Of a stretch of DNA of 64,000 bases, positions 8,526-46,148 are shown piece by piece; within the stretch, counting starts at the first letter, position 1; the number at the start of each line of letters is the position of its first letter. The position numbers and the translations under genes were made by a program. The notes beneath the pieces are model-generated. The model worked only from the letters and a program-made list of their open reading frames with translations. It did no database searches and was not told the origin of the DNA. The stretch covers positions 3,462-67,461 of the forward strand of contig CAJWLM010000004.1 of the NCBI GenBank assembly GCA_913043025.1. Reading direction: 5' to 3'. The stretch is from an uncultured Rhodospirillaceae bacterium (GTDB lineage Bacteria; Pseudomonadota; Alphaproteobacteria; UBA8366).

Positions 8526-8530
8526 TTTGG

Positions 8531-27005: not shown

Positions 27006-27008
27006 TCC

Positions 27009-29131: not shown

Positions 29132-29228
29132 GGAGGCGTTACGTTGCCCGGTGGTGCGCCCGGTCTTCAAAACCGGAGAGGGGTATTTTGATGCTCCTGG
29201 TGGGTTCGACTCCCACACGCTTCCGCCA
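29132..29228 (+). tRNA. selC: tRNA-Sec (anticodon UCA)
   Basis: An 8-bp acceptor stem (GGAGGCGT / ACGCTTCC with one G-U). D-loop CGGT as in E. coli selC. Anticodon loop CTTCAAA with TCA at 29167-29169. Long variable arm, T-arm GTGGG-TTCGACT-CCCAC, discriminator G and encoded CCA. 97 nt. Confidence 0.9.
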
Positions 29229-29268
29229 AACAACATAATTGAGAAGTTTAAACATACAGGATTGTCAA

Positions 29269-29820: not shown

Positions 29821-29881
29821 TTTAGGCTTTTTAAATAAGTAACACTTTTTAAAAAATTTGTCACATTATGTGGGGGAGGAT

Positions 29882-31000
29882 ATGGTTCTAACCGTCAAAA
29901 GCAAACTAGCCTTACAGAGTACTGTGCCTCCCGATATTGACCTTGTGGAGTGGTATTATGAACAAGGGTTCTCCGATGGATTACCAGTAGTTCCTCCTAC
30001 GCCAGGAAAAATAGATGCGATGTTAGAGGAGCTGGGCGGTGAAACAGAAAGTGTTGTATGCAGAGTGCCACCTCGTTGGGGCACATTGACGACCGAGGTG
30101 CTCGCTATCAACTTGGTCATGGCGGGCTGTAAACCAGCATATGCAAGAGTGGTGCGTGCGGCATTGATAGCTTTGACTGATAATGCCTTCAATCTGAATG
30201 GTGTGCAGGCCACTACTCATATGGCTTCTCCACTTTTGGTCGTGAATGGACCGGTGAGAGATGAGATTGGGATGAACTCTGGTTATAACACATTTGGCTC
30301 AGGTAATCGTGCCAATGCCACAATAGGCCGTGCTGTTCGAATGGTTTTGCTAAATGTTGGTGGAGCATGGCCAGGAGATCTTGATAAATCGACATTAGGG
30401 TCGCCAGCAAAATATGCATACTGTATCGCGGAAAATGAAGAAGAAAGTCCCTTTATTCCTTATCACGTTGAAAAAGGGTTTGATGACTCTGATTCAACGG
30501 TTTTCGTTATGGCGGCAGAACCTCCCCACTCAGTCACCAACCATGTAGCTGATGATCCCGAGGGAGTGCTGGAATCTGTCTCCTCTGCGATGAGTACTTT
30601 TGCTAACAATAATGCAGTATCTGGTGGCCATTGCGCCATTGTCTTGGGGCCAGAACACGCAAAAACCATAAGCAGTAAAGGATGGAGCCGTAGCGACATA
30701 AGGAACTTTCTTTGGATGCATTCTGGGAACCGCTTCGGTGATATCGCTTTCGATCATCGTTATGGTAAAATTTATAATCGCAACCTTCCTAAATGGTATA
30801 AACGTGGCATTGAAGATCGAATCCCGATTGTTCCCTCACCCGATCATATTCATCTTTTCGTCGCCGGTGGAGAGGCAGGTCGGTTCTCAGCCTTTATTCC
30901 CGGGTGGGGTCATATGACCAATCCGGTATTACGCTCTGTTTCCGGATTGCCAGCTGCAACAACGGATACACTGTGTAATGATGAAGCTTGTCAGTATTAA
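29882..31000 (+). CDS. Conserved hypothetical protein (family not recognised)
   Basis: The ATG at 29882 follows GGGGGAGGA. A 372-aa soluble protein with motifs FSDGLPVVPPTPGK and NRANATIGRAVRMV. It ends 18 nt before the selenoprotein gene. Confidence 0.6.
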   Translation: MVLTVKSKLALQSTVPPDIDLVEWYYEQGFSDGLPVVPPTPGKIDAMLEELGGETESVVCRVPPRWGTLTTEVLAINLVMAGCKPAYARVVRAALIALTDNAFNLNGVQATTHMASPLLVVNGPVRDEIGMNSGYNTFGSGNRANATIGRAVRMVLLNVGGAWPGDLDKSTLGSPAKYAYCIAENEEESPFIPYHVEKGFDDSDSTVFVMAAEPPHSVTNHVADDPEGVLESVSSAMSTFANNNAVSGGHCAIVLGPEHAKTISSKGWSRSDIRNFLWMHSGNRFGDIAFDHRYGKIYNRNLPKWYKRGIEDRIPIVPSPDHIHLFVAGGEAGRFSAFIPGWGHMTNPVLRSVSGLPAATTDTLCNDEACQY

Positions 31001-31018: not shown

Positions 31019-31567
31019 ATGATTTCAGAAGAAACTTCTCAACAACAGGCTGTCTATGATCCTCGCGGTATAGCTGAGGCGGATTTAGTACCACTGTCTG
31101 CACGACCAAAAACACTTCTAAATTTGAGACTTGCAGTGCTCGATAATACGAAATGGAATGCAGGAAAGCTTCTGCGTAAAACTATGTCAAAGCTCGACAA
31201 AGAATTCAGTTTTGAAAGTATTAATTATTACAAAAAGGAGAGTTTTTCTAAGGTCGCTTCTGCTGCATTACTAGCTGAGATTGTCGAACATAATGATATA
31301 GCAATTACTGCTATTGGCGATTGAGGCTCATGCACATCGTGCTGTATGCATGATGGGTTTGCGCTTGAAAAATATCGAATTCCCACGGCGGTAATCTGTA
31401 CAACCACATTTCTTCATGAAGCACACCAACAGCGTGCGGCATTAGGCATGAGGGATCTTAATCCAGTGGCTATTACACACCCTCTCAGCACGATCTCTGA
31501 TGAGGAAATCGAAATGCGCGTTGATGAGGCTACTGTGCAAATCCGAAAGGTGTTGATGGGAAAATAA
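31019..31567 (+). CDS. UGSC-motif selenoprotein (Sec encoded by the UGA at 31322-31324)
   Basis: ORFs 31019-31324 and 31346-31567 are in the same frame, separated only by TGA. Read-through gives AITAIGD-U-GSCTSCCMHDGF... A hairpin lies directly 3' of the UGA, and selA/selB/selC are 2-5 kb upstream. Confidence 0.75.
31328..31353 (+). promoter_or_regulatory. Candidate bacterial SECIS hairpin
   Basis: A perfect 7-bp inverted repeat, TCATGCA (31328-31334) and TGCATGA (31347-31353), with a 12-nt loop CATCGTGCTGTA that contains GU. It starts 4 nt after the UGA. Confidence 0.5.
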
Positions 31568-31652: not shown

Positions 31653-33152
31653 CTAGCTTCTTGTGCGCGTTGTTTGCCAAATCCGAATTCCGATGACGAG
31701 CGCAGCTAGAAATATGAAAAAGATTGCTAAAGGACGTTCAAGGAAAATCATCGGACCGTCATTATGGAGAAGCAAGGCTTGGCGTAATGCACGCTCAGCA
31801 CCAGGCCCCAGGATAAACGCGATAATAAATGCGGGTAAACTATAATCGAATTTCTTAAAAAAGTAACCAACGAAACCAAAGACCAACATCATCATCACGT
31901 CAAACATCTGGTTGCGCAGAGCATAAACCGCAACAATTGAAGTTAGAAAAATAAAGGGATAAATAACGCGCATTGGTAATTTGGCCATGGCTCGGCCTAT
32001 CAGACCTGATCCCCAGTACCCAATTACGTAGTAAGTCGCTATACAAAGTAATCCAGAAGCAAACAGACCATAGATCGTGTCCCTTTCCTCGACAAAAATG
32101 CGTGGCCCAATATGCATACCATGTATTAAAAATACTCCTCCTAGCAATGCGGCAGCGACACTTCCAGGTATTCCAAGTGTGAGAAGTGGTATGATGTTCG
32201 CACCCGAAACTGAATTGTTTGCAGCTTCTGCTGCGGCAACACCCTTAACTTCTCCGTCTCCCCATTTGTCACCAGGTGAGGCCGTTCGTCGTGCCTCGGC
32301 ATAAGCTACAAAACAAGCTGCTGATGCTCCAACACCAGGCAACATTCCGATGATCGTACCCATGCCTGTTGATTTTGCCATGACTGGTAAACACCGTTTC
32401 AGGTCTGACCATGTTACGTAATTATCGGCGGGTACGTCGGATTTCTCAGACATCATGCGCTCGGAACCTAATGAACCGCGGTCCGCAATTTGCACAAAGA
32501 CTTCTGAGGCAACAAATACTCCTAATAATACAGGGACTAGTCCTATTCCGGTTTCTAGCATGTTAATTTCAAAGGTTAGGCGCGGCAAAGAGCTTATCGG
32601 GTCAAGCCCAATGATTGACAACAAAATTCCAAAGACTGTGCTGATTAAACCCCGCATGATTGAGGCTCCTATCACACTGCCAATGATCACAAAAGCCGTG
32701 CAGTAAACCGCAAAAATTTCTGGTGGCCCCATTCGTGCGGTATAGACCGCGATGAAGGCAGCACCAAAAATTAGAAGACATTCGGAAAATGTATCGCCGG
32801 CAGCAGACGCTATAACTGCCATTTTTAGAGCTTTGCCTTGTTTTCCTTGCCTGGTGAGAGGATATCCTTCGATCTGAGTTGCGGACGCTTGAGGAGTGCC
32901 AGGGGTGTTGAATAGGATTGCTGGAATTGAGCCACCGAAGCTCGCAGATTTTCCGATAGTGTATACAAAAACCAGGGCGGAAAGTGGCTCCAGATAAAAC
33001 GACAAGGGTATAATCATAGAAATTGCAGCTGACGCAGTGAGGCCAGGGGTTGCACCAGCTAGTAGGCCAATGGTGGTGCCGAGGATTGCATAAAAAACTG
33101 CCCAGCCACTGGAAAACAACGAAATAAAACCGTCGACAATGGGATGGTCCAT
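31653..33152 (-). CDS. tctA: Tripartite tricarboxylate transporter large permease
   Basis: A 499-aa polytopic protein with TctA-type blocks (GLLAGATPGLTASAAISMIIPLSF, GMLPGVGASAA). Confidence 0.85.
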   Translation of the reverse strand: MDHPIVDGFISLFSSGWAVFYAILGTTIGLLAGATPGLTASAAISMIIPLSFYLEPLSALVFVYTIGKSASFGGSIPAILFNTPGTPQASATQIEGYPLTRQGKQGKALKMAVIASAAGDTFSECLLIFGAAFIAVYTARMGPPEIFAVYCTAFVIIGSVIGASIMRGLISTVFGILLSIIGLDPISSLPRLTFEINMLETGIGLVPVLLGVFVASEVFVQIADRGSLGSERMMSEKSDVPADNYVTWSDLKRCLPVMAKSTGMGTIIGMLPGVGASAACFVAYAEARRTASPGDKWGDGEVKGVAAAEAANNSVSGANIIPLLTLGIPGSVAAALLGGVFLIHGMHIGPRIFVEERDTIYGLFASGLLCIATYYVIGYWGSGLIGRAMAKLPMRVIYPFIFLTSIVAVYALRNQMFDVMMMLVFGFVGYFFKKFDYSLPAFIIAFILGPGAERALRQALLLHNDGPMIFLERPLAIFFIFLAALVIGIRIWQTTRTRS

Positions 33153-33167
33153 ATTGATCTCCGTCCG

Positions 33168-33728
33168 TCAAATGCCAATCAATTTTCGTAGAGTTCCGAA
33201 AATATAATAATTATCGAATTCAAATATCAGTCCGCGTGGCTCAGATAGTCGTAAAATGCCAAAGAAAATGATATAATAAAAGGTCATTGAAATGGTTGGA
33301 ATTACAAACAACATTCGTGTACCACGATTGCCAAAGAGTGCTAGGGTTGAAGACAGGCAAATAATCGATGGAACCAGATACTGGATCAACGTCATAAGTC
33401 CCACATATAAAAATGCAATGGTGGCCATCGGTATTACCCAGACAACGAAAAGATGAAGCTCGGATGGTAGGTTGCAAATTAGCCGACCAAATAGGGTGAA
33501 TGGCATTGTGGCGTCTTTCTCCTTTTTTCCTTTGTGCATTGAAAAAAAGGAGGACAAAACAAAGCTGGCGCAGAGTGCAACAAGAACAATGCCAACTGAT
33601 AGCGGAAACGTATCAGGGTCCATGCCATGACCAAATGGGTCCTCTTCGATTAAAAAAATTTGCCAAAAAAACACGAGAGTGACGCTAAGCATCACAATAC
33701 TCGAAATAAAGTTACTGCGAGCTGACAT
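33168..33728 (-). CDS. tctB: Tripartite tricarboxylate transporter small membrane subunit
   Basis: A 186-aa protein with 4-5 TM helices, lying between tctC and tctA. Confidence 0.6.
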   Translation of the reverse strand: MSARSNFISSIVMLSVTLVFFWQIFLIEEDPFGHGMDPDTFPLSVGIVLVALCASFVLSSFFSMHKGKKEKDATMPFTLFGRLICNLPSELHLFVVWVIPMATIAFLYVGLMTLIQYLVPSIICLSSTLALFGNRGTRMLFVIPTISMTFYYIIFFGILRLSEPRGLIFEFDNYYIFGTLRKLIGI

Positions 33729-33816
33729 GCTACACCTTGCCGGAAGTCAAAAAAATTGATGAAGTTAGGGTTAGAGTTCTTACAGATACCCCCAACTACA
33801 CGGAACTTGTTTCCAA

Positions 33817-34788
33817 TTATTTTTTCTTTTTGCGTGCTGCTTTCAACTCGTCCACAAGTGGCTTCCAACCCTCAGCAAGACCCTTGTAATATTCGGCTGT
33901 TGAAGGACCTGATTGGTATTTAGCCGGCAAACCTGCCTTCTTGAGAAGCTTTCCATACGCTTTATGGCTCGTCATATTTTTGCAAGCGGTATCAAGTGAC
34001 GAAATAATACTGTTAGGAACGTCCTTTGGAGCCATAATTATCATCGGCGTGAACACTTCGAGGAGGTTAAGCCCCTGTTCTTTGACCGAAGGAATTTTTT
34101 TGTTATTAGGATCACGCTCAGGGTAAATCAGACCGAGAGCACGCACCTGATCTTGAAAGCCATTTATTAGGTGAACACCAATAACAGAAAAATCAACTTG
34201 TTTGCCTATTAAAAGACCGCGTGCCGGCGCTCCACCTTTTGCGGGCACATCAACCGCATTCATATTGTTTCTTTTAGTAAAAGCAAGTCCGGCAATACCC
34301 CAAGTTGTGGTTCGACCCGGAGTTGAATATCTTAATTTACCCGGATTGGCTTTGACATGGTCGACTAACTCTTTAGCGGTTTTAAATTTACTGCTTTGGT
34401 GAACGAATAAGGCAGGTAAAAGGCGTCCCACCATGCACACGATTTTGAAATCCTTAAATGGATCAACTGGCGCCTTGCGAAACTGCGTAGAAAAATAAAA
34501 TGAGCCGCCAGAAGCAAGATAAAGGGTATGGCCATCCGGTGTAGAATCAGCAACATATTTTGCAGCAGGGATAGCTGATCCACCAGGTTTATTGACAACA
34601 ATAAGTGGTTGGTTGTTTATAAAGGTGGGAGCAACAGAAGCGAGCGCACGAGCGTATGAGTCTGTTCCACCGCCTGCACCAAACCCGACAACAAGAGTTA
34701 TGGGTTTCTCGGGGAACACCGCGAGAGCTGGAACAGCTACGGAGGCTATAGCAAAAGCGCTAGCTGCTAGAAATGTTTTGAATTTCAT
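33817..34788 (-). CDS. tctC: Tripartite tricarboxylate transporter substrate-binding protein (Bug family)
   Basis: Signal peptide then FPEKPITLVVGFGAGGGTDSYARAL, typical of Bug/TctC proteins. Confidence 0.85.
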   Translation of the reverse strand: MKFKTFLAASAFAIASVAVPALAVFPEKPITLVVGFGAGGGTDSYARALASVAPTFINNQPLIVVNKPGGSAIPAAKYVADSTPDGHTLYLASGGSFYFSTQFRKAPVDPFKDFKIVCMVGRLLPALFVHQSSKFKTAKELVDHVKANPGKLRYSTPGRTTTWGIAGLAFTKRNNMNAVDVPAKGGAPARGLLIGKQVDFSVIGVHLINGFQDQVRALGLIYPERDPNNKKIPSVKEQGLNLLEVFTPMIIMAPKDVPNSIISSLDTACKNMTSHKAYGKLLKKAGLPAKYQSGPSTAEYYKGLAEGWKPLVDELKAARKKKK

Positions 34789-34991
34789 AATGTTCTCCCT
34801 GTACGTTAAAAAAATTAACTACATCGTTATTATTTTAGTATTATCATTTTCATTTCTTTCGATCATAGCACAACAACCTGCCAGTTTTCTAGTAGGGGCT
34901 TCTGCTATGATAAGCCCGATAATTAAAGTGGAATGTATATTGCCCGAGCACTTATCCATTTAACAAATAGCCAGCCATGAGAGGATCGGTC

Positions 34992-35894
34992 ATGACAATA
35001 GAAACAGTAGCAGTTTTAAGCCCTGGTGACATGGGGCATAATTACGGCATTGCGCTCGACAAAGCAGGATTTCGTATCATTACTTGCCTCGATGGGCGAA
35101 GCGAACGCACTAAAGAGCTGGCGCTGAAGGCCAATTTTGAGGATGTGGGCAGTATTGATGATGTGGTTCGCGAGGGCGATTTGATTTTATCTATAATGCC
35201 ACCAGCCAATTCGGAAGGTATTGCGAAAGAAATAGCTAAAGCAATGGAAAGCACAGGATCCAAACCGCACTTTGCAGATTGCAATGCTATATCGCCGAAA
35301 ACCTCCAAGATTGTCGGCACGCATATTATCGGCGCTGGAGCTAATTATATTGATGCTGGAATTGTTGGTCCTGGGCCTGGTACTCGCGAGCGGCCAACTA
35401 GCATGTATGTGAGTGGCCCTAATAGCAAGCCAGTGATGGACATTAATGGTCCACATATCGAAGTTATAGATCTTGGTGCTGAGATCGGGAAAGCGTCAGC
35501 TGCAAAGATGTGTTACGCGGCTATTACCAAAGGAAGTTGGACACTCTATACGACAGCGCTCGTAGCTGCGGAAGCGCTCGGCGTTTCAGAACAGCTTCAT
35601 AGCGCCCTCAAACAGAGCCGTCCAAGTATTTGGGCTGATATCGAAAAGATGTTGCCTCGGTTGCCGCTCGATGCGGGCCGGTGGATTGGTGAAATGGAGG
35701 AAATAGCTGAAACTATGGGAGCAGCTGGAGCGTCATCACACTTCCACCGCGGTGCAGCTGAAACGATGGAGCTTCTTGATTCTACACCAATTGCCAAAGA
35801 AACAAGAGAAAATTATGACAAAGATCGAACTTTGCAGCAATGCCTTGGAATATTTGCAGAACATTTGCCAGTAAAAAGTGCGAGCAAAAACTAA
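34992..35894 (+). CDS. NAD(P)-binding oxidoreductase with DUF1932-type C-terminal domain
   Basis: N-terminal dinucleotide fold VAVLSPGDMGHNYG. 6-PGDH-like layout with ASAAKMCYAAITKG. The ORF is open from 34977. Confidence 0.6.
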   Translation: MTIETVAVLSPGDMGHNYGIALDKAGFRIITCLDGRSERTKELALKANFEDVGSIDDVVREGDLILSIMPPANSEGIAKEIAKAMESTGSKPHFADCNAISPKTSKIVGTHIIGAGANYIDAGIVGPGPGTRERPTSMYVSGPNSKPVMDINGPHIEVIDLGAEIGKASAAKMCYAAITKGSWTLYTTALVAAEALGVSEQLHSALKQSRPSIWADIEKMLPRLPLDAGRWIGEMEEIAETMGAAGASSHFHRGAAETMELLDSTPIAKETRENYDKDRTLQQCLGIFAEHLPVKSASKN

Positions 35895-35989: not shown

Positions 35990-36904
35990 ATGTGTAATTG
36001 GGAAGAGGCAAGGGCATTAGAGGAAGAATTATTAACCAACTGTGAGCTGCGGAAAACAGCTTGCGGAGATGGGCACATGGTTTGGCGCATTTGGGGTAGT
36101 GGCCCCCCCTTAGTAATGCTTCACGGAGGGGCTGGTTCATGGCGGCATTGGGCCCTGAATATTCGCAGTTTGGCACGGTACTTTACGCTCTTAGTCGCCG
36201 ACTTGCCCGGGTTGGGAGACTCCGCTGAGCCGCCAATACCTTTCGATAATAATAATTTTCGTTCTTCAATAGGGCATTTAGCTAATATTATTTGTGACGG
36301 CATTGATGAATTGATTGGAGAAAAAGCGCATTTTAAAATATTGGCTTTTTCTTTTGGAGCAATAAATAGCGGATACGTGGCATTGCGTATGGGATCACGC
36401 GTTCAGCACCTGACTCTTGTTGGTGCAGGAGCGATGGGATGCACCTGGAGTGGCTTGCCTGCTGAGCCTAAATCATTAAGGGGGACAAAGACCGAGAAAG
36501 AACGGCGGGAAGTGCACCGTCATAACCTCGGCATATTAATGATTGGAAATCCAAATAATATCGATGACAGAGCAGTTTACCTCCAGTCAGAAAACATTTC
36601 CCGAGCAAGGCTACGCAGTTACCGCATAGCGGGAACTGACACGCTCCGTTGGGCACTTGAGCAGGTTAACAGCCCCATAAGTGGTATTTGGGGGCGGGGC
36701 GATGTCTACGCCATGCCGGATCTGGAAGGGCGGATCGATGTGATAAAAGGGATATTCAATGGCGCTGACTGCCGGGTCATTGAGGGGGCTGGTCATTGGG
36801 TTATGTACGAGGCGGCCGATACTTTTAATCAGGTTGGGTTGGAACAATTAGGCGCAATTGTGCAAAAGGGCGAGAGGGAAATTGGGCAAGCAAATGCAAG
36901 CTGA
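35990..36904 (+). CDS. Alpha/beta hydrolase, tandem paralog 1
   Basis: Oxyanion/helix block HGGAGSWRHWALNI, nucleophile elbow AFSFGA, Asp in IWGRGD, His in GAGHWVMYEA. The ATG at 35990 follows AGAGGG; the ORF is open from 35945. Confidence 0.75.
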   Translation: MCNWEEARALEEELLTNCELRKTACGDGHMVWRIWGSGPPLVMLHGGAGSWRHWALNIRSLARYFTLLVADLPGLGDSAEPPIPFDNNNFRSSIGHLANIICDGIDELIGEKAHFKILAFSFGAINSGYVALRMGSRVQHLTLVGAGAMGCTWSGLPAEPKSLRGTKTEKERREVHRHNLGILMIGNPNNIDDRAVYLQSENISRARLRSYRIAGTDTLRWALEQVNSPISGIWGRGDVYAMPDLEGRIDVIKGIFNGADCRVIEGAGHWVMYEAADTFNQVGLEQLGAIVQKGEREIGQANAS

Positions 36905-37727
36905 CGAATATATCACGGAAATTGAGTCATTGTCGGATGTAAAGACTTCGCATTGCGGTGGAGGGGAAATGGTCTGGCATGTTTGGGGTGAAGGCGAGCC
37001 TTTGATATTATTTCATGGCGGGTTTGGAAGCTGGATGCATTGGATTAAAAATATCGAATTTCTCGCTCGCCATTTTCAGGTATGGTGTCCTGATATTCCA
37101 TGCCACGGAGATTCTTCCGTGGCCCCTGAGCCACATGACGCATCAAACATAAGCAAGATCATCTCTGATGGCATAGATCAGGTTCTGCCAAATTTTGAAA
37201 AGCTTCGAATGTGCGGGTTTTCATTTGGGGGAATTATGGCCGGCAATACAGCAGTATGGCAGGGCGAACGCGTACACAAATTACTAATAGTGGGGTCGAA
37301 TGGCCTTGACTGCAGAAAAGGACCTGTTTCCGGTTTACAGGATTGGCGTAAATCAAATACCACAAAAGAACGTCTTGCTTGCCATCAACGTAATCTCGAG
37401 ATTATTATGTTTGGAAATCCACAAAATGTCGACGATTTGGCAATCTACCTCCAAGATAGGAATACTCGGCGATCCCGAATGAAGTCTCGTCATATTGCGA
37501 GCACGCCGGCGCTGCTCAATGCGTTACCGAAGTTGAAGGGCAGTTTATTTGGCATCTGGGGCGAAAAGGATGTCTACGCTAAAGATTTCATGGATGAACG
37601 TCGCAAGGTGTTTGAACGGATACAACCTGGCTGTGAATTTGAAGTTATTCCTGAGGCTGGTCATTGGGTGCCTTATGAAGCAGCTACACAATTCAATTTG
37701 TTAGCACTGGAAATGTTAAGGGATTAA
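36894..37727 (+). CDS. Alpha/beta hydrolase, tandem paralog 2
   Basis: HGGFGSWMHWIKNI, GFSFGG, IWGEKD, EAGHWVPYEA. The start is uncertain: ATG at 36894 or TTG at 36858, both overlapping the end of paralog 1. Confidence 0.75.
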   Translation: MQADEYITEIESLSDVKTSHCGGGEMVWHVWGEGEPLILFHGGFGSWMHWIKNIEFLARHFQVWCPDIPCHGDSSVAPEPHDASNISKIISDGIDQVLPNFEKLRMCGFSFGGIMAGNTAVWQGERVHKLLIVGSNGLDCRKGPVSGLQDWRKSNTTKERLACHQRNLEIIMFGNPQNVDDLAIYLQDRNTRRSRMKSRHIASTPALLNALPKLKGSLFGIWGEKDVYAKDFMDERRKVFERIQPGCEFEVIPEAGHWVPYEAATQFNLLALEMLRD

Positions 37728-37733
37728 GCTTGC

Positions 37734-38630
37734 ATGCTATTGGGAAAACAACGAGAGGCTCTCAAAGGAGGTGCTCCCCGGCATGGCGAAACGCCGGCGG
37801 ATTGTGTTGCTCGGTTTGATACTTCAGCAGAGATCTTAAATACTCCTTGCGGTGATGGAAGTTTGGTGTGGAGAAAATGGGGTGATGGCGAGCCGGTGCT
37901 TTTTTTTCATGGCAATCACGGCTCCTGGACGCACTGGATCCGGAATATCAGCGTTGTAGCTGAAAAATACTCCGTTTTTTGCGCGGACTCTCCCGGGCTT
38001 GGGGATTCCTCCCTGCCTCCATCCCCTTACAGCCTGGAGTGTATAATAGATGCATTCGAAATTGGCATTAAGGATTTAATTACCGAAAAAGTACCGATTC
38101 ATTTCGTTGGATTTTCCTATGGAAGCGCCATTGCTGCTAATACAGCGCTTCGATTCAAACAGCGTGTGAAATCATTGACAATGTGTGCATCTGCGCGATT
38201 GACAGCAACTGCAGATATTCCGCGTGTCATGAAAAGCTGGCGCCGCGCATCAACAGATGAAGATAGGTGGGAAGCACATAGACACAATCTTGCTGAGATG
38301 ATGATCGCAAAGCCAGAGTGTATTGACGATCTAGCTGTTTACCTTCAAAGTCAAAATGCGCCACGCGCCCGCATACGTACGAAGGAATTTATTCCTCGTG
38401 ATAGTTTGATAAATGCGCTTATTGGGTTGAGAGGGGTGCCTATACTAAATATCTGGGGCACAGAAGATGGTTTCTTCAGGGCATTCCTTGAAAGCAAAAC
38501 AGAACTTATTGACGGAAACAATATCGAGCTTGATGTAAAAACCATAGCCAATGTGTCCCACTGGTCACCTTATGAGGCATACACAACTGTCAATGAATGG
38601 TTAATAGAATGGTTTCAGGCACATGATTAG
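37734..38630 (+). CDS. Alpha/beta hydrolase, tandem paralog 3
   Basis: HGNHGSWTHWIRNI, GFSYGS, IWGTED, NVSHWSPYEA. Its N-terminal block ETPADCVARF is shared with paralog 4. Confidence 0.75.
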   Translation: MLLGKQREALKGGAPRHGETPADCVARFDTSAEILNTPCGDGSLVWRKWGDGEPVLFFHGNHGSWTHWIRNISVVAEKYSVFCADSPGLGDSSLPPSPYSLECIIDAFEIGIKDLITEKVPIHFVGFSYGSAIAANTALRFKQRVKSLTMCASARLTATADIPRVMKSWRRASTDEDRWEAHRHNLAEMMIAKPECIDDLAVYLQSQNAPRARIRTKEFIPRDSLINALIGLRGVPILNIWGTEDGFFRAFLESKTELIDGNNIELDVKTIANVSHWSPYEAYTTVNEWLIEWFQAHD

Positions 38631-38644
38631 ATTTGGTAATACCA

Positions 38645-39526
38645 ATGGAAAATGAAGTTCTTGGTGGTGGCTTTCCGCGCAACGATGAAACACCAGAGGA
38701 GTGTGTGGCTCGTTTTGAGAATGCGGCTGAGATTGCTTATACACCATGTGGCGATGGCCATGTGATATGGCATATTTGGGGAGATGGCGATCCTTTATTG
38801 CTATTGCATGGCAATCATGGAAGCTGGACTCACTGGATCAAAAATATACCATTTCTCTCCGAGCAATATCGAATTCTTGTTCCGGATGCCCCTGGGTTGG
38901 GGGACTCCTCGGTGCCGCCAGAACCTCATTCAATGGATGGGATGGCTTCTATCATGAACTCAGGTCTGGATAACTTAATAGGGAGCAAAACACGATGCCA
39001 TATGGCGGGTTTCTCCTATGGCAGTACACTGGGTGGTTACATGGCAATAGGTTTGGGCGCTCGTCTCAAGACATTCGCCATGATAGGAGCGGCTCGATTG
39101 ACTGGCCAACGAACTATGGTAGAGGGCTTAATCAATTGGAAACGTTTGGAAGATCCAGAAGAGATCATTGAAGCGCATCGACACAACCTAGGCCGAGTCA
39201 TGTTTAGCGGGCCGAGAGTAGTCGACGACCTCGCTCTTTATACTCAGGCCAAAAATGCGCCGCGAGCCAGAGTGAAGGCCCACCATTTTGCCCGTCGCCT
39301 AACCCTGCCAGATGCGTTGGTTAAATCGGCGACACAAATTTGTGCTTATTGGGGCACAGCAGATCAGTATTACCCCCATTATATTCAATCATACGACGAG
39401 CAAATTACTGCCCGAGGTCTTAAAATAAAAACTGAAATCATCGAGGGTGCTGGTCATTGGGCAATTTATGAGGCATCAAACGAAATGAACGAAAAGATGC
39501 TCAAATTCATGACATCACATGATTAA
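38645..39526 (+). CDS. Alpha/beta hydrolase, tandem paralog 4
   Basis: HGNHGSWTHWIKNI, GFSYGS, YWGTAD, GAGHWAIYEA. ATG at 38645; the ORF is open from 38633. Confidence 0.75.
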   Translation: MENEVLGGGFPRNDETPEECVARFENAAEIAYTPCGDGHVIWHIWGDGDPLLLLHGNHGSWTHWIKNIPFLSEQYRILVPDAPGLGDSSVPPEPHSMDGMASIMNSGLDNLIGSKTRCHMAGFSYGSTLGGYMAIGLGARLKTFAMIGAARLTGQRTMVEGLINWKRLEDPEEIIEAHRHNLGRVMFSGPRVVDDLALYTQAKNAPRARVKAHHFARRLTLPDALVKSATQICAYWGTADQYYPHYIQSYDEQITARGLKIKTEIIEGAGHWAIYEASNEMNEKMLKFMTSHD

Positions 39527-39551: not shown

Positions 39552-42500
39552 ATGTATTTCGACTCCAGATTGTGGCCATATACTAAAGGCGTGCGGTTAC
39601 GCATTTTAGCAGCAGTCCTTGTTGGATTGCTAGCAGCCGCTTTCGGTGTTGGGCGTTTGGCATTACTTGGTTGGTTGTTGGGGCGGGTCTGGGAGGGTGC
39701 ACCACTTACTCAGTTGTTGCTGCCAATATCAGTTATTGCGGTCGTGATGTTATCCCGAGGTTGGCTTGAATATTGGCGCAACATGATAGCACACAAGACA
39801 GCAGCGAAGGTTCAGGTGCATATACGGAAATTATTGTACAAACAGGTGGTCGCACTCGGGCCATCTTATTTTGGAAACGAAAGAACAGGTTCAGTAATAG
39901 CTGCTATGATTGACGGTGTTGAGCAGTTGGAAATTTATTTCGGCCAGTATATACCGCAGCTTTGCATCGCCACTATAACGCCGCTTGGAATTTTCGTAGG
40001 TGTTGCATTTCTGGATACGCCAGTCGCGCTAGTAATGCTTGGGGCAGCTTTAGTGACACTGGTTGGGCCGCAGATTTTTCATAAAATGGAAGCGGGAAAT
40101 TCGCGGCAACGCTCAATTGCGTTTAAAGCCTTTGCTGCTGAATTTCTAGATGCGGTTCAGGGGCTTGGTACACTGAAGGCATTTGGTCAAGCTAGGAGAC
40201 GTGCAACATATCTAGCGCTGAAGGCTAAGGCATTATTGCGTTCAACCATGTGGGTCCTCGCAACGAATCAGATTGCGCGTGGTTTAACAGATGCTGGTAT
40301 TGCCGTAGGTGTTGCGGCGACCTTAACATTGGGAGCCTACCGGTTGGTTGAAGGAGAAATTTCGCTTTCTGCTTTGTTGATTATCCTCATGATGGGTACC
40401 GAGGCCTACCGTCCGCTTCGCGATATGCGGTCATTACTTCACGCTGGCATGACTGGAAGGTCAGCAGCAGATATGATGCTGGGGCTCTTAAGTTCGAAAC
40501 CCGAGATTCAAGAATGTGTCGACGCCCAACCAACTCCTGATTTATCACCAACAATTTCATTCAAAAATGTGAAATTTGCTTACCCCAATTCTCGACGCAA
40601 TGCACATAGGGGGTTGAGTTTTGAAGTGGATCGAGGGGAGAGGATCGGTATAGTTGGCCCATCTGGTTGCGGTAAGTCGACGATTGTCAAGCTGTTACTC
40701 CGACAATATGATCCGAGTACGGGTGCGATTCTACTTGGCGGAATAAACTTATGTGATTTGCGATTAGAGGATCTTCGCAAACAAATGGCAGTCGTGAATC
40801 AAGATACCTATCTATTCCATGGAACAGTCGAAGATAATATCCGCTTAGGGAAGCCACACGCCACAGAAAATGAAATAAAAGCCGCAGCAATTTCAGCTAA
40901 TGCACACGATTTCATCAAACAATTGCCACAGATGTATGAAACTACCATCGGCGAACGTGGCATTAGACTTTCGGGCGGCCAGCGTCAGCGTATCGCGATC
41001 GCAAGAGCCTTGTTACGAGATGCGCCGATATTAGTGCTTGATGAAGCTTTGTCGTCCGTAGATGCTGAAAATGAGGCGATCATTCAAGAAGCGCTTGATC
41101 GATTGATGCAAGGCCGAACGGTGTTGATTTTTGCTCACCGGCTTTCTAGCGTTATAGGTGCTAACAGAATATTGGTCTTAGAAAATGGAAGGGTTTGTGA
41201 GCAAGGAAATCATGAGGAGTTGCTTGCTGCTGGTGGCATTTATCACAAATTAATGGCTGTGCAGGCAGCTCAAGTAGGCGAATATCAGGTTCCATATTTC
41301 GGCACGGATGACACTGCACCCAATCAAGTGATAAAAACGAATGATATTGATCGTCTTGCTGAGGCTGAAGCACAAAGTGAGCCGACTGATGCTATACTCA
41401 GAGCAAATGGAATGGGCTGGTTAGATGTTTTTCGTGAATTATTGAGTTTCGTGGGGCCTTGGCGTACTCAATTGTTGACGACTTTCATACTAGGGGTAGC
41501 GCGAGTATGCGCATTTATTGGTGTGGGCGTGATGGGTGCGCTAGCAGTAAGTGCAATTAAGCTAAACGAACCATTCGAGGTGTATCTAATTTGGCTCGGT
41601 ATTCTCGCTCCCATGGCAGGCCTCCTTCATTGGCTCGAAAGTTGGCTTGCCCACGATTTTGCTTATCGGATGCTTGCAGAGATGCGGATTCAATTGTTCG
41701 AAAAACTTGAGGCTTTGGCACCATCTTATTTGCTCAGAAGACGCACGGGTGACCTCGTAAGCATGGCGACACAGGATGTCGAGACAATCGAGTATTTTTT
41801 TGCACACACTATTGCACCGGCATTTGTTGCGGTTTTGGTCCCATTTGTTGTTTTTACAGTATTGATAATTGAAGGGTGGCAACTCGCGGTTGCGCTTGCT
41901 CCGTTCTTAGCGTGGGTTGCGTTAAGTCCCTTTCTTAAGCGAAAGCGCATTGACCGGTTAGCATCGCGTGCGCGGGAGGTACTAGGGAACCTTAATGCTC
42001 ACGCTGTAGATACGGTCCAGGGACTAGCAGAAATTACAGCATTCCAGGCGGAACGACGACGCGAGATTGAGTTTATTCAGAAGGTACGGGAGCACCATCG
42101 AGCTCGTCTTCCTTTCTTCGGAGATATGACTGCACAAGCGGCCATATTAGAAACCGCTATCGGCCTCGGTGGTCTTGCCGTCATCACAACTGGTGCTCAC
42201 CTTGTCGCAGTAGGGTCATTTGAACCTTCTAATTTGCCCCTTTTGACCATTCTTGCAATGGCGGCGTTTTTACCGATTTCAGAAATTGCTCACATCGGTC
42301 GACACCTTGCTGACACACTCGGGTCGACACGCAGGATTTACGCTGTTCATGGAGAGCCGGTTGATGTAACCGACGGGCCGGGCGTGACACGGCCAAAAAG
42401 TGTCGGCGGGGCAGAGCTGGCTCTGGAGAAAGTATCGTTTCGTTATTTTGGTCGTAAGCTGGATGCCCTGCATGAGGTCGCATTCACCATTCCTGCCGGT

Positions 42501-43157
42501 AAAACTGTTGCATTAGTGGGTCCATCGGGTTCAGGCAAAAGTACCACCGCACATCTCTTGATGCGATTTTGGGACCCAAATAATGGCCGGGTGACGATGG
42601 ATGGCTGTGATCTTCGCGAATTTGCACTTGATGACCTGCGTCGGCAAATAGCACTTGTTGCTCAGGATACTTATCTTTTCAACGACACGTTGAAAAATAA
42701 CATATTAATGGCTAAACCGGACGCTAGTGATTTTGAGGTTAATAAGGCGGTACAAAGAGCGGCGCTCGGAGAATTCGTTGGAACCGTGCCAGGTGGATTG
42801 GAATCCTCTGTTGGCGAGCGTGGCATGCATCTTTCTGGAGGGCAGCGTCAACGAGTTGCGATTGCGCGTGCATTCCTCAAAGACGCACCTGTGCTAATTT
42901 TGGACGAGGCAACCAGTCATCTCGACGCCGTAAGTGAGACATCTGTGCGAGACGCTTTGAAAGAATTAATGGCTAATCGCACCACGCTCGTTATTGCTCA
43001 TCGACTATCAACAATTCGTGAAGCGGATTTAATAATAGTACTCGAAAACGGTTTTATTTCCGAAGTTGGTTCGCATGACGAATTGCTTTCAAATAAGGGA
43101 TTATATGCGAAATTAGTTTCGCGTCAGATGGTTGCGGCGGCACAGAGTATCACCTAG
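39552..43157 (+). CDS. Fused full-length ABC exporter (TMD-NBD-TMD-NBD), CydD-CydC-like
   Basis: 1201 aa. Two sets of 6 TM helices, each followed by an NBD. Walker A: GPSGCGKST and GPSGSGKST. Signature: LSGGQRQRIAIARA and LSGGQRQRVAIARA. Walker B: ILVLDEALS and VLILDEATS. Confidence 0.85.
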   Translation: MYFDSRLWPYTKGVRLRILAAVLVGLLAAAFGVGRLALLGWLLGRVWEGAPLTQLLLPISVIAVVMLSRGWLEYWRNMIAHKTAAKVQVHIRKLLYKQVVALGPSYFGNERTGSVIAAMIDGVEQLEIYFGQYIPQLCIATITPLGIFVGVAFLDTPVALVMLGAALVTLVGPQIFHKMEAGNSRQRSIAFKAFAAEFLDAVQGLGTLKAFGQARRRATYLALKAKALLRSTMWVLATNQIARGLTDAGIAVGVAATLTLGAYRLVEGEISLSALLIILMMGTEAYRPLRDMRSLLHAGMTGRSAADMMLGLLSSKPEIQECVDAQPTPDLSPTISFKNVKFAYPNSRRNAHRGLSFEVDRGERIGIVGPSGCGKSTIVKLLLRQYDPSTGAILLGGINLCDLRLEDLRKQMAVVNQDTYLFHGTVEDNIRLGKPHATENEIKAAAISANAHDFIKQLPQMYETTIGERGIRLSGGQRQRIAIARALLRDAPILVLDEALSSVDAENEAIIQEALDRLMQGRTVLIFAHRLSSVIGANRILVLENGRVCEQGNHEELLAAGGIYHKLMAVQAAQVGEYQVPYFGTDDTAPNQVIKTNDIDRLAEAEAQSEPTDAILRANGMGWLDVFRELLSFVGPWRTQLLTTFILGVARVCAFIGVGVMGALAVSAIKLNEPFEVYLIWLGILAPMAGLLHWLESWLAHDFAYRMLAEMRIQLFEKLEALAPSYLLRRRTGDLVSMATQDVETIEYFFAHTIAPAFVAVLVPFVVFTVLIIEGWQLAVALAPFLAWVALSPFLKRKRIDRLASRAREVLGNLNAHAVDTVQGLAEITAFQAERRREIEFIQKVREHHRARLPFFGDMTAQAAILETAIGLGGLAVITTGAHLVAVGSFEPSNLPLLTILAMAAFLPISEIAHIGRHLADTLGSTRRIYAVHGEPVDVTDGPGVTRPKSVGGAELALEKVSFRYFGRKLDALHEVAFTIPAGKTVALVGPSGSGKSTTAHLLMRFWDPNNGRVTMDGCDLREFALDDLRRQIALVAQDTYLFNDTLKNNILMAKPDASDFEVNKAVQRAALGEFVGTVPGGLESSVGERGMHLSGGQRQRVAIARAFLKDAPVLILDEATSHLDAVSETSVRDALKELMANRTTLVIAHRLSTIREADLIIVLENGFISEVGSHDELLSNKGLYAKLVSRQMVAAAQSIT

Positions 43158-43243: not shown

Positions 43244-44731
43244 ATGGCAGCTCTGAAGCGCTATCAGCATTATATTAATGGTGAGTGGGTAGATCCATCC
43301 AACGATGAGTGGATAGAAAGTTACAACCCTTATTCCGGAAAACCGTGGGCCGAAGTTCCTCGCGGAGATGCTGCGGATGCTGATCGTGCTGTTTCCGCTG
43401 CATTCAAAGCTTATACATCTGGTGATTGGCCCAATGTGGGCGCTACAGAGCGCGGTGCCCTGATGCGTAAGTTGGGGGACCTCATTGCTGCTAATTCTCA
43501 AAAGCTTGCCGCGATTGAAGTCCAAGACAATGGCAAGCTCATGGCAGAAATGGGAGCACAGCTGGGCTATATTCCTCAATGGTATTATTATTTTGGCGGA
43601 TTAGCCGATAAGATTGAGGGATCAGTCTTACCGATTGATAAGCCCGATACATTTAATTTTACTGTCCATGAGCCACTTGGGGTGTGCGTTGCAATAACGC
43701 CATGGAATTCACCCTTATTGATCACTGCTTGGAAACTTGCTCCAGCTTTAGCAGCTGGCAATACTGTCGTGATAAAGCCATCAGAATACACTTCTGCATC
43801 TACTTTTGAGTTTGTAAAATTAGTTGAGGAGGCAGGCATTCCGCCGGGTGTCATAAATGTTGTTTCCGGCTATGGTAATGAAATTGGTGAAGCACTTGTG
43901 GCGCATGAAAAGGTTGCAAAGGTTTCTTTCACCGGCGGCACGGTTAGTGGAACCCGGGTTTACGAAAATGCTGCCAGCGGTCTCAAAAAGGTTAGTCTTG
44001 AGCTTGGGGGCAAATCACCGAATATTGTGTTTGATGATTGCGAGATCGATAATGCAGTAAAAGGTGCGATATCAGGCATATTCGCTGCTACTGGGCAAAC
44101 ATGCATAGCTGGATCTCGCCTTCTGGTTCAAGAAAGTATTCATGATGAGTTCGTGGATCGGCTAATTACATTAGCTAAAACAGCAAAAATGGGCGATCCT
44201 ATGTCAATAGAAACACAGGTCGGCCCCGTGACGACACCACCGCAATACAAGAAAATTCTTAGTTATTTTGACATCGCAAAAGAAGATGGAGCAGAATGTG
44301 TGCTGGGTGGGAGCAAATCCGACGACCCGTCCCTTGAGCATGGGTGGTTCGTCCAGCCGACAATTTACACGGGCGTAAGAAATTCAATGCGCATTGCTCA
44401 GGAAGAAATATTTGGGCCGGTGTTATCAGTAATTCCATTTAAAGATGACGACCACGCGGTCGAAATTGCTAATGATGTCGTTTATGGTCTTGCTTCAGGT
44501 GTATGGACACAGAGTATTCGTCGTGCCCTTGAAATTTCTAAACGCATTCAAGCAGGCACAGTCTGGGTCAACACTTATCGAGCAGTCAGTTTTGTCTCAC
44601 CTTTTGGGGGGTTTAAGCGTTCAGGATTAGGTAAAGAAAGTGGCCAGCATGCGATACGCGAGTACATGCAAACGAAAAGTATCTGGATAAGCACAGCAGA
44701 AGAGGTGCCAAATCCATTCATCATTCGATAA
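43244..44731 (+). CDS. NAD(P)-dependent aldehyde dehydrogenase
   Basis: Preceded by AGGAGG. Motifs ELGGKSP and catalytic Cys block FAATGQTCIAGSR. 495 aa. Confidence 0.9.
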   Translation: MAALKRYQHYINGEWVDPSNDEWIESYNPYSGKPWAEVPRGDAADADRAVSAAFKAYTSGDWPNVGATERGALMRKLGDLIAANSQKLAAIEVQDNGKLMAEMGAQLGYIPQWYYYFGGLADKIEGSVLPIDKPDTFNFTVHEPLGVCVAITPWNSPLLITAWKLAPALAAGNTVVIKPSEYTSASTFEFVKLVEEAGIPPGVINVVSGYGNEIGEALVAHEKVAKVSFTGGTVSGTRVYENAASGLKKVSLELGGKSPNIVFDDCEIDNAVKGAISGIFAATGQTCIAGSRLLVQESIHDEFVDRLITLAKTAKMGDPMSIETQVGPVTTPPQYKKILSYFDIAKEDGAECVLGGSKSDDPSLEHGWFVQPTIYTGVRNSMRIAQEEIFGPVLSVIPFKDDDHAVEIANDVVYGLASGVWTQSIRRALEISKRIQAGTVWVNTYRAVSFVSPFGGFKRSGLGKESGQHAIREYMQTKSIWISTAEEVPNPFIIR

Positions 44732-44759
44732 TAGTTTTCTTAATTGGAGGAATTAACGT

Positions 44760-46145
44760 ATGGCGCAAATTGCTTTTGATCAACCAGAAGCCAAGGGGCT
44801 AACAGCTAAGTTGGCAAACCACGCTGCAGATCTGTCATTCGACGAATTGCCAGATGATATTGTATCAATTGCAAAGTGCTGTTTTCTTGATTGGTTAGCC
44901 GTAACTTTGGCTGCGCAAGACGATCCAATAACAAAAATGCTCATTTCTGAGGCCAAAGAACAAGGAGGCAACCGACAAGCAACAATCATTGGCGATGGAC
45001 TCCAAACTTCGGTTGGGCAAGCCGCTCTCATTAATGGGACCGTGAGCCATGCTTTAGATTATGATGATGTAAATCTCCTGATGATTGGTCATCCATCCGT
45101 AATTACTTTTGCTGCAATGTTGGGCCCGGCCGAACGTGATGGCACAAGTGGTAGGGATTTCATAACCGCTTTTGTTGCTGGAACCGAGATTGGTTGTCGC
45201 GTAGGTAAACAGCTGATGGGGGAGTCTCATTATCAAAAAGGTTGGCATATGACTGGTACTGCTGGCACTTTTGCTGCTGCTGCGGCAGCCGGGAAAATTC
45301 TTGGCCTTGAATCAGACACTATGACTGTTGCGTTTGGAATTGCAGCCAGTCAGGCGGCCGGGCTAAAAGCAAATTTTGGCACTATGTGTAAGCCATTGCA
45401 TGCAGGGAAGGCATGCCAAAATGGCCTTTTTGCCGCTTCAATGGCTAAACGTGGTTGGACCAGTAATAGAGAGATACTCGAATGTGTTCAGGGTTTTGGT
45501 GATACACAAACGAATGCATTCACGCCGGATCTTGCTACCGAGGGATTGGGCGAACGGTTTCTGACGCGTGGAATGTTATTTAAATATCACGCAGCTTGTT
45601 ATGGCACTCATGCCGCAATTGAAGCAGCTAGGGTCGTGCGTTCTACTCATGGCGTTTCACCCGATGAGATAGAGAATGTCGAACTCCACGTACCATCAGG
45701 TTACTTTAAAATGTGTAATATCCACGAACCGCGCACGGGCCTTGAGGGTAAATTTAGCCTTCGGTTTACAACAGCGATGGGACTTTTAGGCGAAGATACG
45801 AGCAGTATGGATAGCTATTCAGTTGAGAAATGTAAGCACCCAGCGGTTATTGCAATGAGGGATAGAATAAAAGTTGTAGCCAATGACGATTTAGAAAATG
45901 ATCATGCAGTTGCGGACATTATATTAACGAAGAAAAATGGTGGTGTGGTTCGCCAAAGTGGAGCCGTCTACGAACCAGAAACCAATCAATCGAGGCAGTG
46001 GTCGCGGTTGACTGAGAAGTTCATGAGTCTTGCCATGCCGGTTATTGGTGCTGACAAAGCTGGTCAGATTGTCGATAACGTAGGGGCATTACAGGCCATG
46101 GACGATCTTCAATTTATTCCCAAACTCGCGGTGAAAGAGGGTTAA
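44760..46145 (+). CDS. MmgE/PrpD family protein
   Basis: Typical PrpD-family blocks (AKCCFLDWLAVTLAA, HALDYDDV, GWHMTGTAGTFAAAAAA). Confidence 0.85.
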   Translation: MAQIAFDQPEAKGLTAKLANHAADLSFDELPDDIVSIAKCCFLDWLAVTLAAQDDPITKMLISEAKEQGGNRQATIIGDGLQTSVGQAALINGTVSHALDYDDVNLLMIGHPSVITFAAMLGPAERDGTSGRDFITAFVAGTEIGCRVGKQLMGESHYQKGWHMTGTAGTFAAAAAAGKILGLESDTMTVAFGIAASQAAGLKANFGTMCKPLHAGKACQNGLFAASMAKRGWTSNREILECVQGFGDTQTNAFTPDLATEGLGERFLTRGMLFKYHAACYGTHAAIEAARVVRSTHGVSPDEIENVELHVPSGYFKMCNIHEPRTGLEGKFSLRFTTAMGLLGEDTSSMDSYSVEKCKHPAVIAMRDRIKVVANDDLENDHAVADIILTKKNGGVVRQSGAVYEPETNQSRQWSRLTEKFMSLAMPVIGADKAGQIVDNVGALQAMDDLQFIPKLAVKEG

Positions 46146-46148
46146 GGT

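Follow-up and report, generated by a model that had tools for sequence, protein, structure and literature searches.

An anciently expanded tandem array of four alpha/beta hydrolases beside an ABC exporter gene in marine Alphaproteobacteria

Organization of the locus and architecture of the hydrolases

The 64-kb stretch of DNA analysed here (the window) contains four consecutive alpha/beta-hydrolase open reading frames at positions 35990-39526, all on the plus strand. ABH1 (c1; 35990-36904, 304 aa) starts at an ATG with an AGAGGG ribosome-binding site upstream. The start of ABH2 (c2; 36894-37727, 277 aa), which contains a clade-specific PCHGDS motif, was placed at the methionine equivalent to the start of its orthologues and overlaps ABH1 by 11 nt. 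ABH3 (c3; 37734-38630, 298 aa) follows after a 6-nt gap; it is of a derived type and carries an ordered N-terminal extension with the pattern L-x-GG-x-PR-x-GETP-x-x-CV-x-RF. ABH4 (c4; 38645-39526, 293 aa) represents the sister type to c3. Its length agrees with that of a 95%-identical database protein (P0001), and a TTG codon at 38633 is an alternative start. The junctions range from the 11-nt overlap to a 14-nt gap, as the initial annotation of this DNA had given them. No signal peptide was detected in ABH1-4.

The array is embedded in a set of metabolic and transport genes. A dehydrogenase gene (34977-35894, plus strand; NAD_binding_2 and DUF1932 domains) lies 95 nt upstream of ABH1 and keeps this position beside the array in all marine arrays. 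Genes for a TctC-TctB-TctA tripartite tricarboxylate-type importer (31653-34788, minus strand) are divergent from the hydrolase block. Beginning 25 nt after ABH4, a 1201-aa fused two-half ABC exporter was identified by Pfam, NCBIfam and motifs (39552-43157, plus strand), and it is followed by genes for an aldehyde dehydrogenase, an MmgE/PrpD-family protein and a GGT-family protein that lacks a signal peptide (43244-47873, plus strand). The aldehyde dehydrogenase and PrpD genes are also found with the array in a distant lineage (L110).

All four proteins pass the gathering scores of Pfam Abhydrolase_1 and Abhydrolase_6 (46-68 bits against cut-offs of ∼26; 6e-14 for ABH1 against Abhydrolase_1). 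Alignment confirmed the block HG-x-x-GSW-x-HW-x-x-NI in each copy, together with the nucleophile elbows AFSFGA, GFSFGG, GFSYGS and GFSYGS (ABH1 to ABH4, respectively), a triad aspartate within (I/Y)WG-x-x-D, the G/S-H-W ... YEA segment and the H(R/Q)(H/R)NL motif. These shared motifs are present as first described except at the N-terminal block, where two residues, not one, separate CG(D/G)G from (V/I)W and where copy 2 reads CGGG. In the AlphaFold2 model of ABH1 (pLDDT 94), the triad residues Ser121, Asp238 and His269 follow strands 5, 7 and 8, an arrangement canonical for the alpha/beta hydrolases. Ser121 sits between a strand (residues 115-120) and a helix (residues 122-137), Asp238 comes after strand 230-235 and His269 after strand 260-264. 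ABH3 was modelled with similar confidence (pLDDT 94.4). The alignment and the models place Ser, Asp and His at the canonical structural positions in all four copies, and the triad residues are conserved across every aligned member of the hydrolase family. As judged from the retained triads, ABH1-4 are all catalytically intact, in line with the original description.

Age and recurrence of the array

The four copies share pairwise identities of 33-42%. They are not products of recent duplication or gene conversion because, in addition to this amino acid divergence, nucleotide-level matches between them are only short. In neighbour-joining trees that include a dozen or so related contigs of marine Rhodospirillaceae-like bacteria, c1, c2, c3 and c4 each form their own orthologous clade with 100% bootstrap support. 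The dN/dS ratios of the individual copies (0.06-0.15) indicate purifying selection. ABH1 is the fastest-evolving copy, with orthologues that are 55-57% identical. The quadruplication is old, and purifying selection has preserved each copy from before the split of the sampled marine Rhodospirillaceae-like lineages onwards; both the age and the selection had been proposed by eye in the initial annotation, and both proposals stand.

A survey of relatives showed that the array recurs in related marine contigs. Four-copy arrays were found at L001-4, L010, L011 and L032-37, five-copy arrays at L028 and L029 and a partial array at L030. Every complete marine array contains c1-c4 in the same order. 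These contigs are closely related, with 74-90% identity in genes neighbouring the array, and the conservation of the array neighbours may merely reflect this kinship. Independent arrays contain three copies (L067), at least four (L110) or two (L038 and L041); in unrelated high-GC lineages, separate arrays hold three or at least four copies. The copy number is still shifting and stands at three, four or five depending on the lineage. A phylogenetic tie of c1 and c2 to the high-GC arrays received a bootstrap value of only 21-40% in the deep branching of the tree.

The wider family is distinct and unnamed. It comprises ∼700 clusters at 50% identity and is mostly single-copy in Proteobacteria, as at 69 of 78 metagenome loci. 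Members from cultured bacteria in PLSDB are annotated simply as 'alpha/beta hydrolase', and a literature search found no paper on this hydrolase family or on the four-hydrolase-plus-ABC arrangement. No conserved neighbourhood was found around single-copy members except a modest association with AMP-binding ligases: 8 of 91 single-copy loci have an AMP-binding gene at a distance of no more than 3 kb, and none has one further away. The family also includes two fusion proteins, one with an AMP-binding ligase and one with an FAD aromatic-ring hydroxylase. The AMP-binding and hydroxylase links were seen in family branches other than the array.

Proposed roles of the four copies and the adjacent exporter

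Of the 48 alignment columns that are invariant in all four clades, 11 are located in the lid. Clade-specific fixed differences (n = 24) are clustered around the catalytic motifs and not in the lid; only 4 of them fall in the lid, which accounts for 29% of the columns, and lid-focused functional divergence was not found. Because the 11 lid residues are invariant and the clade-specific changes are not lid-enriched, the alignment argues for a common substrate head-group and not for four different substrate classes. A conserved lid without lid-focused divergence suits identical substrates, handled by redundant enzymes or by a complex, as well as it suits subfunctionalisation.

The most likely reading, with an estimated probability of about 0.5, is that ABH1-4 work in the cytoplasm as subfunctionalised hydrolases of related carboxylate-bearing substrates and derive from an ancient tandem expansion of one family. 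The array would represent a single uncharacterised family of cytoplasmic Ser-Asp-His alpha/beta hydrolases in an operon-like arrangement. The serine nucleophile would attack the carbonyl of an ester, a thioester or an activated C-C bond and proceed through a covalent acyl-enzyme intermediate. The substrates are expected to share an anionic, carboxylate-bearing head-group, presumably held by the lid residues His176, Asn179, Gln199, Arg205 and Arg207, which are invariant in all copies. Immediately beside the catalytic centre, the copies differ at Ser+1, HG+1, His-2, Asp+2 and the end of strand 6. Because of these differences, the copies probably divide a range of related substrates, or steps, inside a putative catabolic block that would include the TTT-type carboxylate importer, the beta-hydroxyacid-type dehydrogenase, the aldehyde dehydrogenase and the MmgE/PrpD enzyme. 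The released acid is probably processed further, possibly by an acyl-CoA ligase in some lineages. As far as the present evidence goes, no new kind of mechanism is involved.

The same lid conservation is compatible with a rather unlikely alternative, in which the four (or five) paralogues are not independent enzymes but subunits of one obligate hetero-oligomeric hydrolase. Here, the analogy is to the homo-oligomeric meta-cleavage-product (MCP) hydrolases, and the stoichiometry would be secured by tight translational coupling. The overlapping or narrowly spaced gene junctions and the constancy of c1-c4 in every complete marine array would fit such a complex, multi-copy family arrays emerged or were maintained in three or more separate contexts, and the strictly conserved N-terminal hairpin (CGDG, W32 and W35) could provide an interface. 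However, single-copy members, which presumably function on their own, make up most of the family, arrays of 2, 3, 4 and 5 copies exist, and full triads are found in all copies, whereas scaffolding subunits often lose theirs. It is doubtful, to a somewhat greater degree, that an obligate hetero-oligomer contains four or five active paralogous subunits with differently tuned sites and that such forms evolved repeatedly from a single-copy ancestor.

The exporter encoded downstream of ABH4 combines a CydD-like N-terminal half with a CydC-like C-terminal half, each with a canonical nucleotide-binding domain. It shares with the CydDC thiol/heme exporter the type IV exporter architecture, a best match to CydD in the N-half and a near-threshold match to CydC in the C-half. 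It differs from CydDC in forming a single fused polypeptide instead of two subunits and in scoring below the NCBIfam equivalog cut-offs in both halves (400.6 versus 435 for CydD and 312.1 versus 329 for CydC). No cydAB genes were found among the scanned ORFs of the window.

The initial annotation had presented the four hydrolases and the exporter as one arrangement, which suggests a functional unit. Such a system, in which a cytoplasmic compound such as a thiol or glutathione-linked metabolite or a detoxification product is processed, de-esterified or deacylated, and then exported, is improbable. The exporter gene does lie on the same strand as ABH4 without an intervening convincing terminator, it adjoins the array in all marine arrays, and in the distant L110 lineage (62% GC) an orthologous ABC gene is located within 7 kb of the array. 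The narrow shortfall of both halves from the CydD and CydC cut-offs and the recurrence of a GGT-family gene near the ABC orthologue in several lineages also speak for such a coupling. Against this coupling, five opposite-strand genes separate the array from the ABC gene in L110, and the independent arrays at L067, L038 and L041 have no ABC gene nearby. Orthologues of the exporter are 62-66% identical across many Alphaproteobacteria and stand alone in three of the four other lineages examined; at L111, L112/113 and L114/115, orthologues with 63-64% identity have no family hydrolase within 10 kb. Outside the array-bearing lineages, no hydrolase locus was found with this ABC gene nearby. Moreover, conservation is far higher in the ABC protein (74-80% identity) than among the hydrolases (55-72%), as expected of an independent housekeeping gene. 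The link between hydrolases and exporter looks loose, an adjacency in one clade, and the impression of a dedicated hydrolase-ABC exporter system is corrected. In the preferred reading of subfunctionalised cytoplasmic hydrolases, the exporter would be a conserved housekeeping-type gene that is merely adjacent in this clade and probably co-transcribed.

The array provides a natural test case for division of labour among tandem paralogues. Through the long retention of four or five hydrolase genes in abundant uncultured marine alphaproteobacteria, it also offers enzyme discovery a concrete target, namely the hydrolysis of ester, thioester or C-C bonds in carboxylated dissolved organic matter.

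Comparison with known hydrolase families

Several named families were rejected as assignments. The NCBIfam equivalogs for HsaD, BphD, MenH, PcaD, BioH, PHA depolymerases, haloalkane dehalogenases and OlsI all scored far under their cut-offs, and A. tumefaciens EstC, which has a GHSWG elbow, belongs to another family. The C-terminal alpha/beta-hydrolase domain of AcoC (acetoin dehydrogenase E2-like, PRK14875) was the top or second NCBIfam match for all four proteins. This match covers the full hydrolase domain at 55-74 bits, far below the cut-off of 307 bits. Unlike AcoC, the array proteins have no lipoyl domain, and genes for acetoin dehydrogenase E1 are absent from their surroundings.

Among characterised proteins, the MCP C-C hydrolases (HsaD, BphD, CumD and MhpC), which cleave carbon-carbon bonds in the degradation of aromatic compounds, come closest in both sequence and fold; this supports the earlier guess of an MhpC/BphD-like affinity. 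These enzymes are the top profile matches among solved structures (E values of 1e-20 to 1e-16), and HsaD, CumD and BphD are the best Foldseek matches of the ABH3 model (TM 0.66-0.76). The array proteins and the MCP hydrolases, including DxnB2, share an alpha/beta fold of ∼285 aa, a helical lid, the Ser-Asp-His triad, an asparagine that corresponds to BphD Asn51 and lies in the helix following the HG oxyanion motif, and the catalytic histidine followed by tryptophan. However, identity between the two groups is only 18-25%, and the array copies score 25-59 bits on the NCBIfam models of MCP hydrolases, against cut-offs of 400-462 (best scores of 58.6 versus 400 for HsaD and 47.1 versus 462 for BphD).

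The two groups also differ at the residues around the active site. In MCP hydrolases, an asparagine directly precedes the nucleophile (G-N-S-x-G), and a lid arginine (BphD Arg190 or HsaD Arg192) binds the dienoate carboxylate. The array family has G-F-S-(F/Y)-G instead, with phenylalanine in the asparagine column of all members. The HsaD Arg192 column is occupied by leucine in all orthologues and by arginine only in copy 1 of the window; this arginine was rejected as a retained MCP signature, given the leucine in the orthologues of copy 1 itself. A conserved R-x-R located 12-14 residues past the Arg190/192 column may substitute for the lid arginine. Three residues of the HGGGPG oxyanion loop are deleted in the array family. 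The conserved CGHWA/T motif around the catalytic histidine of MCP hydrolases (Li, Hassler and Bugg 2008, as cited in PMC5201249) corresponds to AGHWV, AGHWV, VSHWS and AGHWA in ABH1-4, in which G/S-H-W is kept and the cysteine is absent.

MCP hydrolases are defined by the hydrolysis of vinylogous 1,5-diketones (PMC9546629). No extradiol dioxygenase, hydratase or aldolase was found among the 46 ORFs scanned in the 64-kb window, and ring-cleavage partner genes were likewise absent from the related loci examined. The array does not belong to a recognisable meta-cleavage pathway, in keeping with the initial view that it is not a textbook pathway. By these sequence comparisons, ABH1-4 are not members of the MCP C-C hydrolase family, because their scores lie far under the cut-offs, they lack the signatures Asn-Ser, lid Arg and CGHW, and no partner genes for ring cleavage are present in the window. 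It is highly improbable, for the same reasons, that they are true MCP hydrolases serving four ring-cleavage pathways with the remaining genes elsewhere in the genome, despite the structural matches, the retained Asn51 equivalent and His-Trp pair, the family member fused to a flavin aromatic-ring hydroxylase and the score of 516 bits that the neighbouring aldehyde dehydrogenase reaches on the HpaE model, below its cut-off of 638. The array family would instead be a sister group of the MCP C-C hydrolases. With its peculiar motifs TPCGDG, HW-x-x-NI, HRHNL and N-x-P-R-A-R, it is defined here as a coherent, nameless alpha/beta-hydrolase family that has its own signatures and stands beside the MCP C-C hydrolases.

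The tandem hydrolase array

Four consecutive ORFs on the plus strand encode the alpha/beta hydrolases ABH1 (35990–36904), ABH2 (36894–37727), ABH3 (37734–38630) and ABH4 (38645–39526), confirming the array described in the initial annotation. The ATG of ABH1 is located seven bases 3' of AGAGGG, and ABH2 starts at the Met equivalent to the start of its orthologues, which generates an 11-nt overlap with ABH1. ABH4 has an alternative TTG at 38633, and its 293-residue product has the same length as P0001, a database protein with 95% identity. All four copies (c1–c4) score above the Pfam thresholds for Abhydrolase_1 and Abhydrolase_6, and a signal peptide was found in none of them. The AlphaFold2 models of copies 1 and 3 are confident (pLDDT 94.0 and 94.4, respectively) and position Ser, Asp and His after strands 5, 7 and 8 in the canonical topology. 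The previously listed motifs are present with two small amendments: the spacer between CG(D/G)G and (V/I)W is two residues long instead of one, and the form in copy 2 is CGGG. ABH1 of the window is atypical of its own orthologues, with an AFSFGA elbow in place of their GFSFG. A seven-residue insertion after the PGLGDS motif is common to all c1 orthologues and missing in c2–c4.

The four proteins exhibit pairwise identities of 33–42% and resemble each other at the nucleotide level only in short patches, which rules out both a recent duplication and homogenization by gene conversion. The same array is found in metagenome contigs (L001–L004 and L034–L037), in two Tara-type 'Rhodospirillaceae bacterium' MAGs (L010, PAXN01000021; L011, PBOR01000040) and in L032 and L033, relatives that are nearly identical to the window (92–95% identity). 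In neighbour-joining trees, each array position forms one clade that contains all lineages, with 100% bootstrap for c1, c2, c3 and c4. This branching dates the quadruplication before the divergence of the array-bearing marine lineages. Between L010 and L011, the closest pair whose synonymous sites are unsaturated, dN/dS values for ABH1–ABH4 are 0.135, 0.062, 0.067 and 0.145. The earlier proposal of an old duplication with selection on every copy is thus correct. The hydrolases diverge faster than their neighbours (55–72% versus 74–90% identity for flanking genes between the window and its relatives), and ABH1 evolves fastest. The dS values of L010 versus L011 across the adjacent hydrolase genes (7263–10861) are 0.21, 0.47, 0.67 and 0.11, a six-fold spread that suggests a recombination mosaic inside the array.

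Copy number varies among relatives. L028 (3625–4515) and L029 (8001–8885) have five copies, the additional one being c3-like (57–59% identity to c3 of the window) and inserted between c3 and c4; L030 (1677–2561) carries this gene in a partial version of the same array. The insertion indicates that the array is still expanding. Three tandem copies are found in the high-GC organism of L067 and at least four in L110 (62% GC), and these two arrays have orthologues in common (92–100% bootstrap). L038 and L041 contain two c3/c4-like copies separated by an HIT-family gene. The conserved arrangement at these loci (L038, 2–2179; L041, 38–2252; L031, 70–2142) consists of a protein-kinase-like gene, a hydrolase, the HIT-family gene and a second hydrolase, followed by an opposite-strand MBL-fold gene. 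c3, c4 and the HIT-associated genes compose a superclade with 100% support, marked by an ordered N-terminal extension. The deeper branches, for instance those joining c1 or c2 with the high-GC arrays, reach bootstrap values of just 21–40%.

The family and its predicted function

Relatives of the four-copy profile number in the thousands. An exhaustive HMMER search yielded 707 clusters (50% identity) at E ≤ 1e-30 versus 11,956 at 1e-10, and the family is therefore well delimited among alpha/beta hydrolases. A typical member is a single-copy protein of about 283 residues from Alpha-, Beta- or Gammaproteobacteria. Source names are limited to 'alpha/beta fold hydrolase' or automatic labels, and none of the NCBIfam models comes close to its cut-off with ABH1–ABH4. 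The family has invariant features of its own, namely TPCGDG, two Trp residues in the N-terminal hairpin, HRHNL and Q-x-x-N-x-P-R-A-R in the lid. It is a new, unnamed family within a very well known kind of enzyme, in an arrangement that is unusual, conserved and multi-copy.

Of the alignment columns, 48 are invariant in all four orthologous clades, and 11 of these belong to the lid (H176, N179, L180, M184, D192, D193, A195, Q199, R205, R207 and L219). Another 24 columns are fixed within clades but differ between them; only four of these are lid positions, the lid accounting for 29% of all columns. Several of the 24 adjoin the catalytic motifs, at Ser+1 (F/F/Y/Y), HG+1 (G/G/N/N), His-2 (A/A/V/A), Asp+2 and the end of strand 6. 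The invariant lid residues, combined with clade differences near the catalytic motifs, suggest that the Arg pair binds a head-group common to all substrates and probably anionic, with fine-tuning near the reaction centre.

Two database proteins are apparent fusions of a family hydrolase, one with a C-terminal AMP-binding acyl-CoA ligase (P0367, 830 residues) and the other with an N-terminal FAD aromatic-ring hydroxylase (P0311, 856 residues). Moreover, 8 of 91 single-copy loci (about four lineages) have an AMP-binding gene less than 3 kb from the hydrolase, and none of the loci has one at a greater distance. For family members outside arrays, the ligase fusion and AMP-binding neighbours would, as indirect evidence, fit activation of the acid product of the hydrolase to a CoA thioester; a parallel is steroid catabolism, in which FadD3 follows HsaD (PMC9546629).

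The most likely explanation, with a probability of about 50%, is that the array represents an old, still-evolving tandem expansion of one uncharacterised cytoplasmic serine-hydrolase family. By subfunctionalisation, the paralogues would have come to act on related substrates that bear a carboxylate, inside a catabolic gene block, with the downstream ABC exporter as a bystander. An obligate hetero-oligomer of ABH1–ABH4 is a less probable arrangement, consistent with the tight coupling of the genes and with the binding residues common to all copies.

The gene block and the ABC exporter

The block starts with TctC-TctB-TctA on the minus strand and continues on the plus strand with an NAD_binding_2/DUF1932 dehydrogenase, ABH1–ABH4, the ABC exporter, an aldehyde dehydrogenase, an MmgE/PrpD-family protein and a GGT-family protein, in which a signal peptide was not found. 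The marine clade keeps this order, interrupted in a single lineage by an inserted TauD gene. The ABC gene starts 25 nt 3' of ABH4, and no convincing terminator was found from ABH1 to the ABC gene. Its 1201-residue product fuses a CydD-like half to a CydC-like half with two canonical nucleotide-binding domains. The equivalog scores of the halves are just below cut-off (400.6 versus 435 for CydD and 312 versus 329 for CydC), and homologues with 62–66% identity number in the thousands.

The initial annotation proposed a pathway of four hydrolases plus exporter, of which adjacency is all that was found. In three of four other lineages inspected (L111, L112/113 and L114/115), the ABC orthologue is a solitary gene preceded by a divergent LysR gene, with no family hydrolase within 10 kb. 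In the fourth lineage (L110), the hydrolase array is located 7 kb upstream of the ABC gene, across five opposite-strand genes, and the same Aldedh-PrpD pair follows the ABC gene. No ABC gene is observed near the arrays of L067, L038 and L041. The exporter is thus independent and conserved, and what connects it to the hydrolases is position; an export-coupled system is unlikely, somewhat more so than the hetero-oligomer. In unrelated lineages, the fused CydDC-like ABC orthologue repeatedly has a GGT-family gene no more than about 8 kb away (window, 46149–47873; L112, 941–2653; L114, 3321–4997; L115, 3819–5531).

Upstream, selA, selB and tRNA-Sec (25587–29228) are followed about 2 kb downstream by a UGSC-family selenoprotein gene (31019–31564, plus strand). 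Its in-frame TGA (31322–31324) gives AIGD-U-GSCTSCC, and the frame stays open for about 80 further codons. A plus-strand ORF of about 375–380 residues (29858–31000), with no Pfam or NCBIfam match, always directly precedes this gene and may encode its functional partner; it is also found in L001 (523–1641), L029 and L033, with 79–89% identity between lineages. A CMD (AhpD-like) family ORF (29239–29820, plus strand) starts 11 nt past the tRNA-Sec gene, and L010, L011 and L033 share this placement beside the Sec genes.

Comparison with meta-cleavage product hydrolases

[quoted passage not shown] Four of them, HsaD, BphD, CumD and MhpC, are the closest solved structures by sequence (E 1e-20 to 1e-16). 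HsaD, CumD and BphD are also the best fold matches of copy 3 (TM 0.66–0.76), and the ranking for copy 1 is flatter and consists of generic alpha/beta hydrolases (TM 0.60–0.70). That ABH1–ABH4 are true MCP hydrolases with distant partner genes is highly improbable, given that the Asn before the MCP nucleophile is replaced by Phe, the Cys of the CGHWA/T motif cited for the MhpC family in PMC5201249 is absent, the HGGGPG loop is shorter by three residues and the HsaD Arg192 column contains Leu, with Arg only in copy 1 of the window and not in its orthologues. Moreover, genes for an extradiol dioxygenase, hydratase or aldolase are absent from the whole 64-kb window and from related loci. The family nevertheless retains the triad and the His-Trp pair in the HsaD alignment, as well as the BphD Asn51 equivalent in HW-x-x-N-I, and by these residues it appears to use the same catalytic platform as the MCP hydrolases, its nearest relatives.
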